In this document: positions 2,277-37,726 of the stretch, in pieces
Layout: each line of letters opens with the position of its first letter
Position numbering within the stretch: position 1 is the first letter of the stretch
Assembly (NCBI GenBank): GCA_963843555.1
Contig: CAWJKV010000005.1
Coordinates: 224,001 to 288,000, forward strand
Reading direction: 5' to 3'
DNA: 64,000 bases
DNA from: an uncultured Methanosarcinales archaeon
GTDB lineage: Archaea; Halobacteriota; Methanosarcinia; Methanotrichales; Methanotrichaceae
Notes under the pieces: generated by a model
Database searches by the model: none
Seen by the model: only the letters and a program-made list of their open reading frames with translations
Told to the model about the DNA's origin: nothing
Made by a program: the position numbers and the translations under genes

Positions 2277-2530
2277 ATCCATAAAGTTGGCCCTCGTGCT
2301 CTCCATCACATCCGCCTGCGGCACGATCAGACAGAATCTTCTATCGCTTCCAGCACCTTCTTCGCAGCCGAGCACCTCTCCGCCCGGGAGACATCTGCTG
2401 CCATCTGCTCCAGGTACTTGACATTGATATGGCCCATTTTGAACCGGGTAACCAGGATGCCGGTCATGATGGCATCATTTTTCTTTTCAACCGCAAACTA
2501 CAAGTATCTATAACGATTATATACATAGTT

Positions 2531-3014
2531 TGCCGCTTCATGAAAAGGGTGGCGGGTGTGTCGTGGGCACAACCCGATTCCGATAATGCTCTGTTTGGCA
2601 AGGATGATTCGAGCGCAGTCCCTCATAGGGGCGCTTGCGGTCGCTTACAGATCAGATCGCTTTCCTTGTTCCAGGAGATGCATGCCGTCGTGGCAATGCA
2701 TTCGGGCTTGGGAGCCTGTGAGACTGAATCTCGGCAGCAAAAAAAGTTGCGCACTGTAACAGGTGCAGTAATCTGTCGAAAGGATTTCGCGCTAATACAC
2801 GACCGGGGCATGAAGCGGCACAAAGCCAAAGGCGAGAGGCGAGCATGAGGGCCCAGTGAGTTCGGGTTCCGGTAATTCGGACGCTGTGTCAATTCCAGCG
2901 CGATTGAAGCCTCAAGCCCGGCTTAAGTATCGTCGAGTTCCGGGCAGGGTCAGGCTATCACTTCTGTGATCGGCTCCTCCTAGAAGGGCGCTGTGGATCA
3001 GTGCTGGCCCGCCT
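2531..3014 (+). ncRNA. Putative large structured non-coding RNA of unknown family (strand tentative)
   Basis: TGCCGCTTCATG (2531-2542) is exactly complementary to CATGAAGCGGCA (2809-2820) and encloses many nested hairpins. A second multibranch domain spans 2837-3014. G-U-compatible pairs read on the + strand. No convincing ORF. Confidence 0.55.
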
Positions 3015-3171
3015 GAGAATCGATTTATGCTGTATAGCATATCAGGGAAAGTCGATAGACTATTTTCTCCCTCTTTATGATCGAAAATATTATGATCAAG
3101 TCAACAGATCAATTTAATGTACCGCAATATCTCAATATAGATATCCGGCCTAATGGCAAGGGAGAAATATC

Positions 3172-4197
3172 ATGAATTTACGAGCAATCTTGATGTGCCT
3201 GCTCATCCAGGTTATTTTATCGAATCCAGTTTATTCTCAAATTCTCCATGCGGAGATGAATGGAGATGACGGAATTTTTCAGTTGACTGACAACGACTCT
3301 AATCTGTCATCTAATGATACCAAATCTATTACACCGTTAATTGCAAAGATCAATCAATCTGTTCTTGGTGAAATTAGGATAGAACCAAATAAAACTCCGT
3401 ACACACGCATCTCTAATTATTCTGTTAAAATTCCTCCAAATGGCGATCCAGCGGACATATATTATCCTGATCAATCAGATACTGAAAAGAAAATTAATAA
3501 ATTTCCCTTTGCGCTTCTCTTGCAGGGTGCCAATGTTGATAAATCCTTCTATTCAGGTTTTGCACGAGAGGTCGCTGGTTTTGGATTTATTGTTGTTGTT
3601 CCCAATCACAAATCCACAATGATCATAACTACAGGGCTATATGCAGAGGAAGATGAGGTCAATGATGTCTTGACATTTATGGAATCCGAGAATACAAGAG
3701 CTAGTTCGCCGCTAAATCAAAAAATTGATACAAACACCATGGTCCTCCTTGGACACTCGTATGGTGGAGCGGCTTCCCTTTATGCAATTCAGGGCAGCTG
3801 TCAGTTTCCCTTCTGCATTGGATTTGGCTATAACAGACCGGATGCTCTTAAAGGTGGCGCTTTTTATGGGACGAACTTGAAAGGGCCAATAGGTCCAATA
3901 CCTTTACTGGACAATCATGGATTAGCAATATGCCTGATCCAAGGCAGCAGGGATGAATTAGCAACCCCCGCGGAAACTGAAGAGACTTATAATAATATAA
4001 AAGATCATCCTAAGGCTTATGTCACTATACAGGGTGCAAACCACTATGGCATAACAGATGTGAACAATCCAACCGGTGCAAAACCGGATAAAAATATCCC
4101 ATTGATCTCCCAGCAAGAGTCTGTCGAAAGGATAGGTAAAGAGGCGGCATTGTTTTTGCGCCATTTTTGCCTTGGCGATAATAGTAGCCTGGACTGA
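3172..4197 (+). CDS. Secreted alpha/beta hydrolase (chlorophyllase/cutinase/dienelactone hydrolase-like)
   Basis: N-terminal signal peptide; nucleophile elbow GHSYGG; putative Asp (GSRDELA) and His (GANHYG); AT-rich relative to neighbours. Confidence 0.8.
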   Translation: MNLRAILMCLLIQVILSNPVYSQILHAEMNGDDGIFQLTDNDSNLSSNDTKSITPLIAKINQSVLGEIRIEPNKTPYTRISNYSVKIPPNGDPADIYYPDQSDTEKKINKFPFALLLQGANVDKSFYSGFAREVAGFGFIVVVPNHKSTMIITTGLYAEEDEVNDVLTFMESENTRASSPLNQKIDTNTMVLLGHSYGGAASLYAIQGSCQFPFCIGFGYNRPDALKGGAFYGTNLKGPIGPIPLLDNHGLAICLIQGSRDELATPAETEETYNNIKDHPKAYVTIQGANHYGITDVNNPTGAKPDKNIPLISQQESVERIGKEAALFLRHFCLGDNSSLD

Positions 4198-4885: not shown

Positions 4886-6245
4886 ATGCGTCCATTCAAG
4901 AACATCACTGAGAAGATCAAGGCGCCGGGCCCTTTATGGGTCAAAGGAGCTTCTGCAAACGGCACAAATAGCGTAAGCTTCTTCAGCCAGTTGCAGGGCA
5001 AGAAGATCGTGGATAAAGAAGGTAATGCTGTGGGAAAGCTCACCGACCTGTCTCTGATGCCGGGTGAGATGCTGCTGGAGATCTCTCGCATAGTCTATAC
5101 CTCCAACATCCTGGGCGAAAAGGTCATATTGCCCATTGTCCAGCGTAAGCTCCATCAATGACGATATCCGGCTGGATCTGGCCAGAGACGAGATACCACC
5201 GGGAAAGCTCTCCCTGCAGGAGCTCCTGATAACAGAGACCATTTTAGATCGTCAGATCGTGGATATTGACGGCCTGAAAGTGGTGCGGGTCAATGACGTT
5301 CTTCTGGCCCAGGTAAAGAGGTCTCTCAGCGTGGTGGCAGTGGACGTCGGCTTTAAGGGAATACTGAGAAGGTTAGGGTTTTCCGGGCTATCTCATCACC
5401 TATTGGATCGGCTACCCAATCAGATTATACCCTGGTCTTACATCGATCCACTTGACCCCAGTCTAAGAAGCCTTCATCTCAAGATCTCAAGAAAGACCAT
5501 CAATGATCTGCATCCTGCCGATATCGCCGACATTCTCGAAGACCTGAACAACAAAGATCGGCTTCTCATCCTCGATTCCCTGGGCGACGAGACGGCAGCC
5601 GAGACAATGGAAGAGATGGATCCAGAGGTTCAGGCAACTATGGTGAAGCAGATGGAAAGCGATGATGTGGCAGACATACTGGAGAATATGAATCCTGATG
5701 ATGCCGCGGACCTGCTGGGAATAATGCCGGAGAAGAAAGCCTCTGAGGTTCTTAACCTCATGGATGAAGAAGAGGCAAAGGAAGTCCAGGAGTTGATGAG
5801 GTACAGTGATCGGTCTGCCGGAAGCCTCATGACCACAGAATATATCGCTATTCTCGGGCACTGCAGTGTATCTGACATCTTTTCTAAACTTCGGAGGTTA
5901 GGGCAGGAGATAGATATGATCTACTACATCTATGTCCAAAATGATGAGGGCCAGATCCTGGGTGTCATGTCCCTGCGCGATCTTCTTCTGGCCGATCCCG
6001 TACAACTGGCATCAGATGTCATGAAGAAAGAGGTCTTGAGCGTCCTTCCCACTGCGACCATAGAAGAGGTCACAAACCTTTTGTCCAAATACGACTTCCT
6101 CTGCGTCCCGGTTGTGGATAATGACGGCAATATCCTGGGGATTGTGACCTTTGACGATGCCCTGGACGACATCATTCCGGAGGACATCAGGAAGAACATG
6201 CCCTGGAACTACCATAAACTGCGCCGGGTAAGAGGAATGGCCTGA
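4886..6245 (+). CDS. MgtE intracellular-domain protein (PRC-barrel + MgtE_N + CBS pair), frameshift near 5140
   Basis: PRC-like repeats (KIVDKEGNAVGKLTDL; QIVDIDGLKVVRVND), LHPADIADILE, DDAADLL, SAGSLMTTEY, CBS pair; no TM domain. Confidence 0.85.
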
Positions 6246-7516
6246 TGGATTTCCATCCCCTGCAGGGACTGAATCTAAGAAGCAGAATGACCCAACTGGC
6301 GATCTTCTTCAGTGTTCTTGGGCCGGGAATAATCACCGCCAATGTGGACAACGATGCAGGCGGCATTACAACTTACAGCATCGCTGGGGCTATTTTCGGG
6401 TACTCTCTTTTGTGGACACTCATACCCATCACCGCTGCCCTCTTTGTAGTGCAGGAGATGTGCGCGCGAATGGGTGTGGTCACGGGCAAGGGTCTGGCTG
6501 ATCTCATCAGAGAATACTTTGGAGTCAGGCCGACAGTGATATTGCTCATAGGAATGATCATCGCCAATCTTGGTACCACTACAGCAGAGTTTGCCGGGGT
6601 CGCAGCAAGCATGGAGATCTTCGGCGTGAGCAAATATATCTCAGTTCCTATAGCCGCCGCCCTGGTCTGGTTGATTGTTGTCAGAGGCAACCGTCGCTTC
6701 CTGGAGAAGATATTTCTTATCGCCAGTTCCATTTTTATTACCTATATCATCTCCGGAGTAATGCTAAAACCGGACTGGAAGTTTATTCTCACTCAAACGG
6801 CAACTCCGAGCGTGAGCCTGGAATCCGGATATCTTTATATGGTGATAGCACTTGTGGGAACGACTATCACCCCCTGGATGCAATTCTACCTGCAATCCAC
6901 CATTGTGGAAAAAGGAATTAAATTATCTGAATATAAATATACGAAATGGGATGTCTATGTCGGATGCATAATCACCGGCCTGGTTTCCTATTTTATAATA
7001 TTGACCTGTGCCTCGACCATCTTTGCCCAGGGCATAAGGATCGAGACGGCGAAAGATGCAGCTCTTGCACTCTTTCCCCTGGTGGGCAGCTACTCAGCCG
7101 GGCTCTTCGCCTTCGGCCTTCTCAATGCGTCTCTCTTTGCCGCCTCCATACTGCCCTTATCAACGGCCTATTTCATTTGTGAGGGGATGGGCTGGGATTC
7201 CGGATTGAATAAGAGATTCTGGGATGCACCCCAGTTCTACATATTCTACACTCTGCTCATCGCCGCCGGCGCCATTTTCATACTGATACCGGAGGTGCCA
7301 CTGTTAACGATAATGTTGCTGTCACAGGTGATAAATGGATCTCTTCTGCCATTGGTGCTGTTGTTCATGCTCATTCTGATCAATAACAAGAAGCTGATGG
7401 GAAAATACACCAATAGCAAATTCCTTAATATCATCGCCTGGTCCACCACCATCATCATGAGTATCTTAACTGCGTTGCTGGTGGTGACGACTCTGTTTCC
7501 AGGTCTGGGAAAATGA
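6245..7516 (+). CDS. Nramp-family divalent metal transporter, Mg2+-type (NrmT-like)
   Basis: GPGIITANVDNDAGGITTYS, QEMCARMGVVTGKGL, GTTITPWM; many TM helices. Confidence 0.9.
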   Translation: MDFHPLQGLNLRSRMTQLAIFFSVLGPGIITANVDNDAGGITTYSIAGAIFGYSLLWTLIPITAALFVVQEMCARMGVVTGKGLADLIREYFGVRPTVILLIGMIIANLGTTTAEFAGVAASMEIFGVSKYISVPIAAALVWLIVVRGNRRFLEKIFLIASSIFITYIISGVMLKPDWKFILTQTATPSVSLESGYLYMVIALVGTTITPWMQFYLQSTIVEKGIKLSEYKYTKWDVYVGCIITGLVSYFIILTCASTIFAQGIRIETAKDAALALFPLVGSYSAGLFAFGLLNASLFAASILPLSTAYFICEGMGWDSGLNKRFWDAPQFYIFYTLLIAAGAIFILIPEVPLLTIMLLSQVINGSLLPLVLLFMLILINNKKLMGKYTNSKFLNIIAWSTTIIMSILTALLVVTTLFPGLGK

Positions 7517-7572
7517 GGGCATAGGCCCGAAGAGGCATTTGGAAAAAATGTGAAAAAATCGGAGGAAATAGA

Positions 7573-8679
7573 TTGAAGCGATCCAGCAAAGAGGCACGTA
7601 CATCAGATCGCCCTAGCACTCACCATCATGGCACTGAGCTACTTGACACAATTCTGCCTCCTGGCAGCCAGGTGCCGCCGGATAAGACGAAGATCACAGT
7701 CATAGTCTATGACGAGACTCATTTTCATGAGACCGAGGCGAAATCGGTCGAAGAATGCTTTATATTTAAGGCCGATCCCTCTGTGACCTGGATAAACATA
7801 GACTGCCTGCGGCAGATGGATATTCTGGAAAAGCTCAGTAAATGTTATGGATTTCACCCCCTGGTTCTGGAAGATATACTGACCGATCAGCGTCCCAAGA
7901 TCGAAGACTACGACGACTATATCTTCATCGTGCTCAAGATGCTCTACTACGATGAAGAAGGGGATGACGTGCCCGACGACTCCAAGCTCGACATGGATCA
8001 GGTCAGCATAATCCTCGGCAAGAATTTTATAATCTCTTTCAAGGAGAAGGATGTCGATGTGTTCAATCCGCTCCGGGAGAGGCTCCGGACGGCCAAAGGA
8101 AAAATTCGAAAGCAAGGAGCCGATTATCTCGCTTATTCCATGATGGACTCAATTGTAGACCACTATTTCGTGATCATGGAGAAGCTGGGCGACCGCTTCG
8201 AGAAGCTGGAGGATGCAGTGGTGTCTAATCCAGAGCCCGGCATTCTTCCTACCATATACAATTTGAAAAGAGATATGCTGTACTTGCGAAAATCTGTCTG
8301 GCCACTGCGTGAAGCAATAAGCAAAATGCAGAGGACGGATTCGCCCCTGGTCTCAGAGGCTACAAAGATCTATTTGCGTGATGTTTATGACCATACCATC
8401 CAGGTGATTGAGAATATTGAGACCTTCCGGGATATGTCCTCCTCATTGCTGGAGACCTATCTCTCGAGCCTGAGCAATAGGCTCAACGAGGTGATTAAGC
8501 TATTGACCATCATCTCCACCATATTCATACCCCTCACTTTTCTGGCAGGGGTCTATGGAATGAATTTCAGGTATATGCCGGAGCTGGAGTCTATATGGGG
8601 CTATCCTGCGGTCCTTGTGCTGATGCTACTTGTTGTGGTCACCATGTTGACCTATTTTTGGCGAAAGAAATGGATTTAG
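7573..8679 (+). CDS. corA: CorA magnesium/cobalt transporter
   Basis: HPLVLEDIL, QRPKIEDY, YLRDVYDH and the YGMNF signature with two C-terminal TM helices. Confidence 0.95.
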   Translation: MKRSSKEARTSDRPSTHHHGTELLDTILPPGSQVPPDKTKITVIVYDETHFHETEAKSVEECFIFKADPSVTWINIDCLRQMDILEKLSKCYGFHPLVLEDILTDQRPKIEDYDDYIFIVLKMLYYDEEGDDVPDDSKLDMDQVSIILGKNFIISFKEKDVDVFNPLRERLRTAKGKIRKQGADYLAYSMMDSIVDHYFVIMEKLGDRFEKLEDAVVSNPEPGILPTIYNLKRDMLYLRKSVWPLREAISKMQRTDSPLVSEATKIYLRDVYDHTIQVIENIETFRDMSSSLLETYLSSLSNRLNEVIKLLTIISTIFIPLTFLAGVYGMNFRYMPELESIWGYPAVLVLMLLVVVTMLTYFWRKKWI

Positions 8680-12547: not shown

Positions 12548-12854
12548 AGAGAAGATGTAGATAAGGTCCATGCTAAGATCCTTTGGATCAAGCCTTATTA
12601 TCACAATTATTTTTTTTAAAAATTACCATAGAACATTATGTGTTTCGCTATCCCGAATTGTTCTATAGATATCGATTTTGACCAATGAAATGAGGCCAGT
12701 CAACAACTTGTTTCAGAATGAAACATATCTGTTGATGAAGTCACTCCCAGTTAGCTCTCTGGAAATGGTCATGGGAATATCATGAAACACGTCTATTGAT
12801 GCTGATTTGCGTGGACCGCAAGTTGGTTCTCTCTACTGGATACTACCATGAAAT

Positions 12855-13004
12855 TTACATCAAAACTGGCACGTTACCTTTGAGGATCAACTCGCAATCC
12901 TTTTTAACTTGCTTATTGTAGAATATTCTGTATCTATACTTGGGCACCAACACGATGTGGTAGGTGATTTGACCATAGCCATGGCTGAAGCTGCGCAATT
13001 CCAA
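12855..13004 (-). mobile_element. tnpA: Truncated IS200/IS605-family transposase (TnpA N-terminus)
   Basis: Manual translation LELRSFSHGYGQITYHIVLVPKYRYRIFYNKQVKKDCELILK; YHIVxxPKYR is the Y1 transposase N-terminal motif; GTGAT SD-like sequence upstream. Confidence 0.85.
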
Positions 13005-13118
13005 CGCTTATCACATCCTAGCTATAGGTGGGTGGCACCACCTGTGGCTAAGGTGCCAAGTACAACCTCATCTTAAGAGAATCAATGTTTTATTGATTTA
13101 AGAGAGTACAGAGAAAGG

Positions 13119-13172
13119 GCGAGGGTTCACTTTATCCCCGACCTGAAGGTCGGGGTATTCGTGACCCTTCGC
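13119..13172. mobile_element. IS200/IS605-type subterminal hairpin
   Basis: CCCCGACC-TGAA-GGTCGGGG (13136-13155) inside an imperfect outer stem GCGAGGGTTCAC/GTGACCCTTCGC; about 115 bp from the tnpA remnant. Confidence 0.65.
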
Positions 13173-13204
13173 GCTACCAATGTAATAAAGATATTCACTA
13201 AAAT

Positions 13205-14068
13205 GTGAATTCCAAGAAACAGGAAACAGGAGAGATGCTTCAAGAATTTTTGAGGTTAATTATGAAAGGTAATAACTGGAAAATAAGTCTATTCAATTGG
13301 TCCGATATTCTAGTATCGAATTTAATTACTTTTATCGAAACTGTTTTCCAAGGATTATGGTTTGGTTTTCTAGAACAAAAAGATTTTAATATTATCACTA
13401 AAATGTATTACTCATCAACAGGAATGTACCAGGAGGAGGTGTATAATCTATCAGGCTTTTGGTATTGGGAGGAACAAATTGTAAACAATTTTTTTAAAGA
13501 TTGTCGAACAGTTTTGGTAGGGGCGGCAGGAGGGGGAAGAGAAATAATAGCCTCATCAAAACGAGGAATAAACGTGGAAGCATTTGAATGCAATAACGAT
13601 CTGGTATTATATTGCTCACACTTATTAAAAAAATATGGTATATTGGCAAAGATAGTCCTTTCAGCTCCTGACCATGTTCCTGATGAAATGGGAATCTATG
13701 ACGGACTTATAATTGGTTGGGGGGGATATATGCATATCATTGGCTACGAAAATCGAGTTCAATTTTTGAAAGAATGTCATGAACACGTCAAGCCGAATAG
13801 TCCGATATTCCTCTCATTTTGGACAAGGAACGAGTCCAATGTGTTTGATTTTCATAGCACAAGGATAGCAAAATTCATTCGTTTTCTTCGAAGGAACGAC
13901 GAGCCTATAGAAATTGGAGATACGATAGATTTACCTGGTTACTATCACAGGTTTACCAAAGACGAGATCGAAAAAGAACTAAAAGAAGCAGGATTCCTTT
14001 TAGTGTTCTATTCTGAATCTGGCGTACCGCATGCTGTAGGAAAAGCATTTGATCAAATATTGAATTAA
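13205..14068 (+). CDS. Class I SAM-dependent methyltransferase (start may be 13235 or 13262)
   Basis: VLVGAAGGGRE motif I, VEAFEC motif II, YDGLIIGWGGYMH; strongly AT-rich. Confidence 0.75.
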   Translation: MNSKKQETGEMLQEFLRLIMKGNNWKISLFNWSDILVSNLITFIETVFQGLWFGFLEQKDFNIITKMYYSSTGMYQEEVYNLSGFWYWEEQIVNNFFKDCRTVLVGAAGGGREIIASSKRGINVEAFECNNDLVLYCSHLLKKYGILAKIVLSAPDHVPDEMGIYDGLIIGWGGYMHIIGYENRVQFLKECHEHVKPNSPIFLSFWTRNESNVFDFHSTRIAKFIRFLRRNDEPIEIGDTIDLPGYYHRFTKDEIEKELKEAGFLLVFYSESGVPHAVGKAFDQILN

Positions 14069-37624: not shown

Positions 37625-37634
37625 AAAAGGAATG

Positions 37635-37726
37635 CGCCGCCAACAGGGCTCGAACCTGTGACATTCTGGTTACTGCTCTGTCCTGCAATTAACAGCCAGA
37701 CACTCTACCAACTGAGTTATGGCGGC
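37635..37726 (-). tRNA. tRNA-Asn (GTT) with a 19-nt intron at position 37/38
   Basis: GCCGCCA...TCTGGCTGTTA[ATTGCAGGACAGAGCAGTA]ACCAGA...GTTCGAGCC...TGGCGGCG; intron at 37671-37689. Confidence 0.92.

Follow-up and report, generated by a model that had tools for sequence, protein, structure and literature searches.

An apparently undescribed large structured RNA family of Methanotrichaceae, ROOL/GOLLD-like in outline

Introduction

The window (the whole 64,000-nucleotide stretch of archaeal DNA analyzed here) contains an intergenic element that a first-pass annotation, made from the letters alone, singled out at positions 2531-3014 as an unannotated large structured RNA, possibly linked to an adjacent nucleotidyltransferase module. 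The locus raises the question of whether this element is a genuine non-coding RNA gene and, if so, how far it extends, which parts of its structure are conserved, and how it came to lie among the genes that now surround it. In the current study, we characterized the element and its relatives by homology searches, covariation and coding tests, contigs of public RNA libraries, and analysis of the flanking DNA. The features of the locus are listed below.

526-2094, + strand: winged-HTH and DUF6036 nucleotidyltransferase genes, both broken, a putative toxin-antitoxin pair (a neighbor, outside the RNA gene)
2091-2276, + strand: 61-codon ORF without family assignment, belonging to the same mobile gene set (homologs in 8 loci)
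2327-2467, - strand: divergent 46-codon ORF, recurrently beside copies (homologs in 10 loci; no Pfam or NCBIfam match)
2486-2530, + strand: promoter-like leader with predicted BRE and non-canonical TATA element at ~2499-2506 (conservation, profile)
2531-3020, + strand: large non-coding RNA gene of ~490 nt (putative strand and ends)
2531-2820, + strand: variable 5′ domain, with P1 (2531-2542/2809-2820; covariation) as its closing helix
2560-2565/2798-2803 (P2), 2598-2604/2663-2669, 2678-2701 (hairpin) and 2717-2723/2785-2791: helices within the 5′ domain
2747-2771, + strand: hairpin P6, carrying a 6-nt loop and a bulged A at 2767 (covariation, pattern)
2837-2912, + strand: 3′ core module 1, predicted four-way junction (hairpins, Fisher P 0.007-0.008)
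2932-3019, + strand: 3′ core module 2, predicted four-way junction resembling module 1 (profile cross-score)
3034-3074, + strand: remnant of a ~60-nt CCCUCC-rich hairpin small-RNA gene (paralogue comparison)

Results

Distribution and Novelty of the RNA Family

A BLAST search with positions 2480-3060 as the query was positive in all 36 same-genus genomes and in 0 of 24 genomes of other families. With a second, divergent query, matches were found in 82 of 105 Methanotrichaceae genomes, covering 58/58 in the genus and 9/16 genera, and a covariance model of the 3′ part matched 54/74 Methanotrichaceae genomes and 0/76 others of the class. The RNA was not found in 7/7 genomes of one genus, six of them at 99% completeness, or in some others. 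When the search was extended to the phylum, a single weak covariance-model match (24 bits, E = 2e-4) appeared among 146 genomes outside Methanotrichaceae, at L373 (G299:C19:147039-147210). A GTDB-wide pattern scan returned 113 loci; 48 of the 80 titled loci had strong profile matches, and these carried the titles Methanothrix, Methanosaeta, Methanotrichaceae, Methanosarcinales or uncultured archaeon. The bacterial matches of the short pattern (32/80 titled loci) were set aside as chance. The plasmid and phage collections of GenBank held no match. Genomes carry 1-12 matches each, the window's own genome having eight (six full copies and two 3′ fragments), and 58 copies share a mean pairwise identity of 65%. 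The first reading overlooked a multicopy, family-wide gene tied to mobile DNA, and its boundaries need adjustment, since the conserved unit begins at 2486 and the RNA probably runs to ~3020.

Rfam 15 gave no match for the RNA gene at gathering score, the only hits over the window being three tRNAs, and near the element only three chance matches far below cut-off were seen at E ≤ 10. Likewise, no Rfam 15 family (ROOL, GOLLD, OLE, raiA and others) came near its gathering score with the window, a paralogue or 12 divergent loci. The first-pass annotation had noticed no RNase P, SRP or group II intron signature, and indeed no such model matched, nor did the conserved helix-8 or P4 motifs appear; the genome has its SRP RNA and RNase P RNA genes at other places, and the profile of the RNA family matches neither. 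An origin from SRP RNA, hinted at by short shared words, was rejected for want of a profile match, and look-alikes of domain 5 and of the hammerhead, judged by eye, are not conserved across types. No published description of a Methanotrichaceae RNA of this kind was found in the literature covered, which included the accessible text of PMC11225162 and PMC13502194 and left most subscription papers outside its scope. Intergenic DNA of 6,968 archaeal species has been clustered (10.64898/2026.10.21.760802); the word "Methano" does not occur in the accessible main text of that work or in that of PMC5737381. This intergenic atlas and PMC10690425 could contain the family as an unnamed cluster. We conclude that this is an apparently undescribed archaeal family of large RNAs.

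The ORFs that overlap the element had been dismissed as spurious, and the homologs agree: neither the 43 type-A nor the 30 type-B copies preserve a start-stop pair of useful length, and of 1028 indels, 910 disrupt the reading frame (118 are multiples of three). The long ORF at 2429-2848 had no Pfam match.

Conserved Structure of the 5′ Domain

The perfect 12-bp helix that had been proposed to close the first domain, here P1, proved exact; such a repeat arose in 48 of 10,000 mononucleotide shuffles, and compensatory changes occur in homologs. Pairing in P1 is partner-specific, with 39 of 43 distinct 5′ strands pairing better with their own partner than with others. At the level of whole helices, Fisher P values from 136 copies were 5e-7 for P1, 5e-7 for P6, 3e-4 for P2, and 2e-3 and 2e-4 for the hairpin at 2678-2701. 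P6 is the best-conserved element of the 5′ domain: its pattern was found in 118/136 copies, and both sides have changed at pairs 320-322 of alignment A1 in 17, 5, and 6 sequences, respectively. P2 (GTCGTG/CACGAC) is 98% paired (tree-aware E = 0.013), which bears out the pairing first suggested for these strands; they had been offered as a pseudoknot, and this part of the proposal falls, because the hairpin at 2553-2576 is unconserved (59% paired and free of compensatory changes across 44 type-A copies), making P2 a nested helix. As for the other local hairpins that had been drawn, every stem that could be mapped to the sequence does pair in the window, but those at 2716-2737, 2770-2786, and 2904-2915 are poorly conserved.

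The 5′ domain varies in length from 78 to 304 nt (105 copies) and occurs in at least four sequence types, as well as in minis reduced to P1. Both the 5′ domain and the 3′ core are present in 132 of 140 leader-bearing segments, and two further such segments hold the 5′ domain only, followed by a U tract. At L415, L417, L427, and L449, the same leader precedes much diverged sequence that keeps the bulged-A hairpin alone, possibly representing a further subfamily.

The description "densely structured" does not hold in terms of energy. On the + strand, the 484-nt stretch folds no better than dinucleotide shuffles (z = -1.11; 17/100 shuffles equal or better), and z on the - strand is -1.88. Values for the 5′ domain ranged from +0.6 to -5.7 across 40/42 copies and were lower in type B. 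When 42 copies were aligned with MAFFT, both partners were seen to change in 36 of 61 proposed pairs, a count lowered by the entry of the three outer P6 pairs one base off, vs. 19.3 in shuffles (0/500 reach 36) and 17-25 in slid controls. For the 3′ part, the corresponding count is 18/38, vs. 9.4 in shuffles and 10-12 in slid controls. A tree-aware scan of all pairs against all, of low power with its sets of 44 and 29 sequences, returned no pair at E < 0.5, and the tree-aware test of larger sets placed 3 and 5 of 104 proposed pairs at E < 0.05 (five on 136 copies). Among homologs, covariation is upheld for P1, P2, P6, and the hairpin at 2678-2701; the all-pairs scan does not show it, and neither do the stems that close the 3′ core.

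A 3′ Core of Two Similar Modules

Several 3′ hairpins have helix-level support of 0.002-0.012 (136 copies), among them the module-2 hairpin at 2988-3004 (P = 0.002), whereas the closing stems of module 2 gave P = 0.06-0.69, and the tree-aware test on 136 copies found no covariation support for the 3′-core closing stems. The closure first proposed for the second domain, AGGCG-AGCATGA/TCAGTGCT-CGCCT, fares no better, with Fisher P values of 0.85 and 0.55 and pairing of 79 and 75% across 136 copies. In homologs, the third hairpin of module 1 (2882-2900) bears what we take to be a T-loop motif, a motif that is also found in RNase P RNA; the window copy has a 6-nt loop and is one base short. Among 105 seven-base loops from 140 cores, the T-loop bases G53, U54, A58, and C61 are present in 104, 78, 101, and 104, respectively. 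The module-1 profile scores above 5 bits on 88/136 module-2 sequences and on none in three shuffled sets, and the resemblance of the two modules likely reflects internal duplication. The loci L046, L049, L050, L381, and L422 form a subtype with an intact 5′ domain and a strongly diverged 3′ core.

Leader and Downstream Small RNA

The promoter-like tract noted upstream of the element is strongly conserved before other copies too. This leader of ~45 bp is the best-conserved part of alignment A1, conservation jumps at 2487 (103 copies), and in the window's own genome the leader profile matches only before the six RNA copies. It contains an inverted repeat (2505-2512/2520-2527) of 8-bp arms and a 7-bp spacer, with one mismatch in the window copy. 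The spacing of the predicted elements, compared with that of the SRP gene, would agree with that of an archaeal promoter from which transcription begins near 2531. A sigma-70 promoter scan was set aside as not apt for archaea.

Most copies are followed by a pyrimidine-rich tract, and 74/127 by a second promoter and a CCCUCC-rich hairpin small RNA. Relative to a paralogue, the window has lost ~80 bp at ~3033, a deletion that took the U-rich tract and the small-RNA promoter. An intact small-RNA gene with its own promoter and two CCCUCC (anti-Shine-Dalgarno-like) motifs lies at L074:3144-3258; this small RNA has nine matches in the window's own genome and none in Rfam. Directly after the truncated gene, an AT-rich gene for a 341-aa alpha/beta hydrolase (3172-4197; PETase-like Pfam match) is likely a later insertion, because the matching place in L003 lacks it. 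Further downstream, an MgtE-like CBS-domain transporter gene (4886-6245; family assigned by eye) appears split into two ORFs near 5140-5160.

Evidence from RNA Libraries

The stretch is contained in 20 of 24 listed sequencing runs, with 16 recorded as RNA and nine studies represented; sediment and soil are among the sources of the RNA samples. In all four of the RNA runs analyzed in detail, from four studies, contigs covered the bins 2528-3019 and none covered 2487-2527, although this part of the leader is equally conserved in DNA; one run had a trace at 2405-2486. The contigs are largely those of relatives and give neither strand, ends, nor level. Summed contig depth peaked at values from 55 to 2.5 million across the four runs, figures that overcount through summing, derive mostly from relatives, and do not represent expression level; the RNA may rank among the most abundant non-ribosomal RNAs. 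In each of these runs, depth over the 3′ core is far below that over the 5′ domain, which is only a hint and may be a library or divergence effect. No back-joined or circular joints were present among the RNA contigs of these runs. Considered together, the homologs, the covariation, the lack of a conserved ORF, and the RNA-library contigs uphold the central claim of the first-pass annotation, and the element is almost certainly a real non-coding RNA gene, distinct from SRP RNA and RNase P RNA.

Genomic Neighborhood and Mobile DNA

Neighborhoods of the RNA are diverse, with 244 singleton neighbor proteins at 128 loci; the commonest neighbor is DUF1699 (17/128), and ParA, MC1, and ArdC also recur. 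A recurring order, partial in several loci, runs HTH, nucleotidyltransferase, 61-aa ORF, 46-aa ORF, DUF1699, RNA, small RNA, recombinase. The structure of the RNA persists where neighboring genes are broken. The suggested link to the nucleotidyltransferase module appears incidental, since the module lies within 1.6 kb of the RNA at only 6/128 loci, and in the window its HTH and nucleotidyltransferase genes are frameshifted relative to intact 298-aa and 232-aa homologs in L183. PADLOC reported nothing specific for the pair. A scan of 60 loci located transfer RNA genes at eight of them, with no more than two per locus, and these loci show no association with tRNA islands. In the window itself, a tRNA-Asn gene with an intron of ~20 nt lies at 37634-37726 on the - strand. 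No reverse transcriptase, as expected beside a retron or other RT-linked ncRNA, was found in the window's own genome, which is 82% complete, or recognized by eye among recurrent neighbors.

A tyrosine recombinase is present in 28/105 genomes (E ≤ 1e-30). Among the matches listed, 17 of 26 with at least 56% identity lie within 10 kb of an RNA copy, vs. an estimated chance of about 6%, although kin are not independent and some RNA 5′ ends are estimated; these 26 were kept from 35 matches, nine at ≤50% identity being left out. Most RNA copies have no recombinase nearby. The recombinase gene is cut at position 200-208 in 10 loci, next to several different upstream sequences, so an att site may lie inside the gene. 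These enzymes (L136:3874-4458, L140:3454-4047, and loci L153-L182) form a Methanotrichaceae clade of ~195-aa tyrosine recombinases consisting of the catalytic domain only. At L188, where the RNA is lacking, a recombinase of 56% identity has a TROVE-domain gene (12677-14020) and an IS605 TnpB gene (7170-8267) in its vicinity.

The RNA was also found on two contigs of IMG/VR. Both have terminase and portal genes, one has a capsid protein gene, and both encode a 194-197-aa tyrosine recombinase within 0.5 kb of the RNA, which in one contig is placed between ParA and the recombinase. The RNA occurs on two of the three virus contigs that have the recombinase. Four scans yielded only these two viral contigs, and in one the RNA may sit in flanking DNA. 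The contigs (L238 and L239; virus handles G181 and G182) represent two head-tail viruses, likely of Methanotrichaceae, and one of them encodes a 492-aa protein that joins ligase-like, uracil-glycosylase-like, and XkdF protease domains. Carriage of the RNA by mobile elements is, in our judgment, quite likely.

Discussion

Our preferred explanation, to which we assign a probability of roughly 0.55, is that the gene specifies a Methanotrichaceae-specific, multicopy structured RNA with a strong promoter of its own, spread by temperate viruses and integrative elements and serving as a scaffold or decoy. Under this explanation, the promoter would yield an abundant, stable RNA, and the elements marked by the short tyrosine recombinase would distribute its gene; once integrated, they would decay but leave the RNA gene in place, and the outcome would be the varying copy number per genome in unrelated neighborhoods. 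The 3′ core, with its two predicted four-way junctions and T-loop, might pack the RNA or direct its trimming, and the P1-closed 5′ domain with the bulged-A hairpin might be a stable, swappable binding part, through which the RNA could bind proteins as a scaffold or decoy, much as has been proposed for ROOL and GOLLD. The scaffold or decoy function, suggested by analogy, is in itself a tentative proposal. We regard as improbable a bolder version in which the T-loop 3′ core is cut off to leave a stable, swappable 5′ domain, the RNA partners the catalytic-domain-only recombinase, and the family is the first archaeal class of large ornate RNAs, borne by viruses and elements and very abundant, with this partnership spreading the gene around Methanothrix genomes.

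It is conceivable, if unlikely, that the RNA unit is itself a non-autonomous mobile element, with the leader palindrome as a recombinase site and the RNA perhaps as cofactor or guide. Such an element would account for the sharp left edge at YTCRA, the 103 different left flanks in 105 copies, and the fragments of a recurrently truncated, catalytic-domain-only recombinase that adjoin RNA copies; moreover, the arms and spacer of the leader repeat presumably resemble a tyrosine-recombinase site. However, no target duplication or terminal repeat was seen by eye, no second palindrome was found downstream, the palindrome decays in divergent copies, the left flanks form related groups, and orientation and distance relative to the recombinase vary. 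Nor did the RNA show the flank complementarity, terminal repeats or target duplication expected of an IS110 bridge RNA, an IS200-IS605 guide RNA or a MITE: guide-like matches between the RNA and its own flanks were no longer than matches to other flanks in 103 copies, although the element may in fact end elsewhere than assumed. A regulatory or housekeeping RNA of the host, duplicated by rearrangement and merely sharing plastic regions with mobile genes, would explain why every same-genus genome searched is positive, why some loci retain one neighbor across several genomes, and why most copies stand apart from a recombinase. The lack of a match in all seven genomes of one genus, its inconstant neighborhoods, and its presence in virus contigs make such an origin rather improbable.

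Functions built into the RNA itself appear less probable still. A ribozyme capable of self-cleavage or self-splicing, or a retro-mobile RNA, whose 3′ core cuts off the 5′ domain would fit the fall in contig depth, the copies that consist of a 5′ domain only, and the conserved bulged A and junctions. Yet the depth profile has the other possible explanations given above, no ribozyme or intron family matched, the 82%-complete genome yielded no reverse transcriptase, back-joined contigs are absent, and the RNA is intergenic with its own promoter rather than inserted in genes, so that we consider this very unlikely. Slightly harder to credit is a role as RNA antitoxin for the HTH/nucleotidyltransferase pair, or as the mRNA of a type I toxin under the control of the CCCUCC small RNA. 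The pair does recur upstream in some loci and the small-RNA module follows more than half of the copies examined, but the pair is rarely close by and is broken in the window, it is present without the RNA in L183, and no peptide frame is conserved.

Relative to known systems, the preferred reading, a mobile scaffold or decoy RNA, finds its closest parallels in bacteria. ROOL RNA averages 581 nt (520 nt in L. salivarius), is multi-junction and of unknown function (PMC5737381; PMC5643018; 10.1101/2024.12.08.627333), and, in the accessible text of these sources, is described as very abundant and carried by phages, prophages or a megaplasmid. The Methanotrichaceae RNA is alike in size class, multi-junction structure, and mobile carriage. 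ROOL differs in being bacterial, in having three pseudoknots, and in often lying near tRNA islands, and the Methanotrichaceae RNA has no ROOL match in Rfam; a nanocage has been demonstrated for ROOL. GOLLD shares a conserved 3′ region with a variable 5′ region and occurs in prophages, phages, and elsewhere (10.1101/2024.12.08.627333, accessible text), but it is bacterial and often exceeds 800 nt, whereas the RNA described here is archaeal, ~270-500 nt long, and multicopy, has a duplicated-looking 3′ module, and lacks a GOLLD match in Rfam. A large RNA with a covarying multi-junction structure, partially supported in the 3′ core, was found on viruses and mobile DNA as well as on chromosomes, and the Methanotrichaceae RNA is ROOL/GOLLD-like in outline and a member of neither family. 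With archaeal SRP RNA and RNase P RNA it shares size class and, probably, possession of its own promoter. The linked recombinase shares a recurrent truncation at one gene position with the archaeal "suicidal" or short tyrosine integrases (PMC8371274), but its break falls within the catalytic domain, and the accessible account of those integrases includes no RNA partner.

Large RNAs that are conserved yet have no known function form a rare class; ROOL, GOLLD, and OLE, the examples considered in this comparison, are bacterial, and two of them build RNA-only cages. The present family is unrelated to the bacterial ones, and its hosts are acetoclastic methanogens, major natural producers of methane, in which metatranscriptomics based on ORFs may discard such an RNA. 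The connection with a short recombinase gives a lead for work on the mobile DNA of archaea, and the natural minis, domain swaps, and 5′-only forms lay the structure and function of the RNA open to direct testing.
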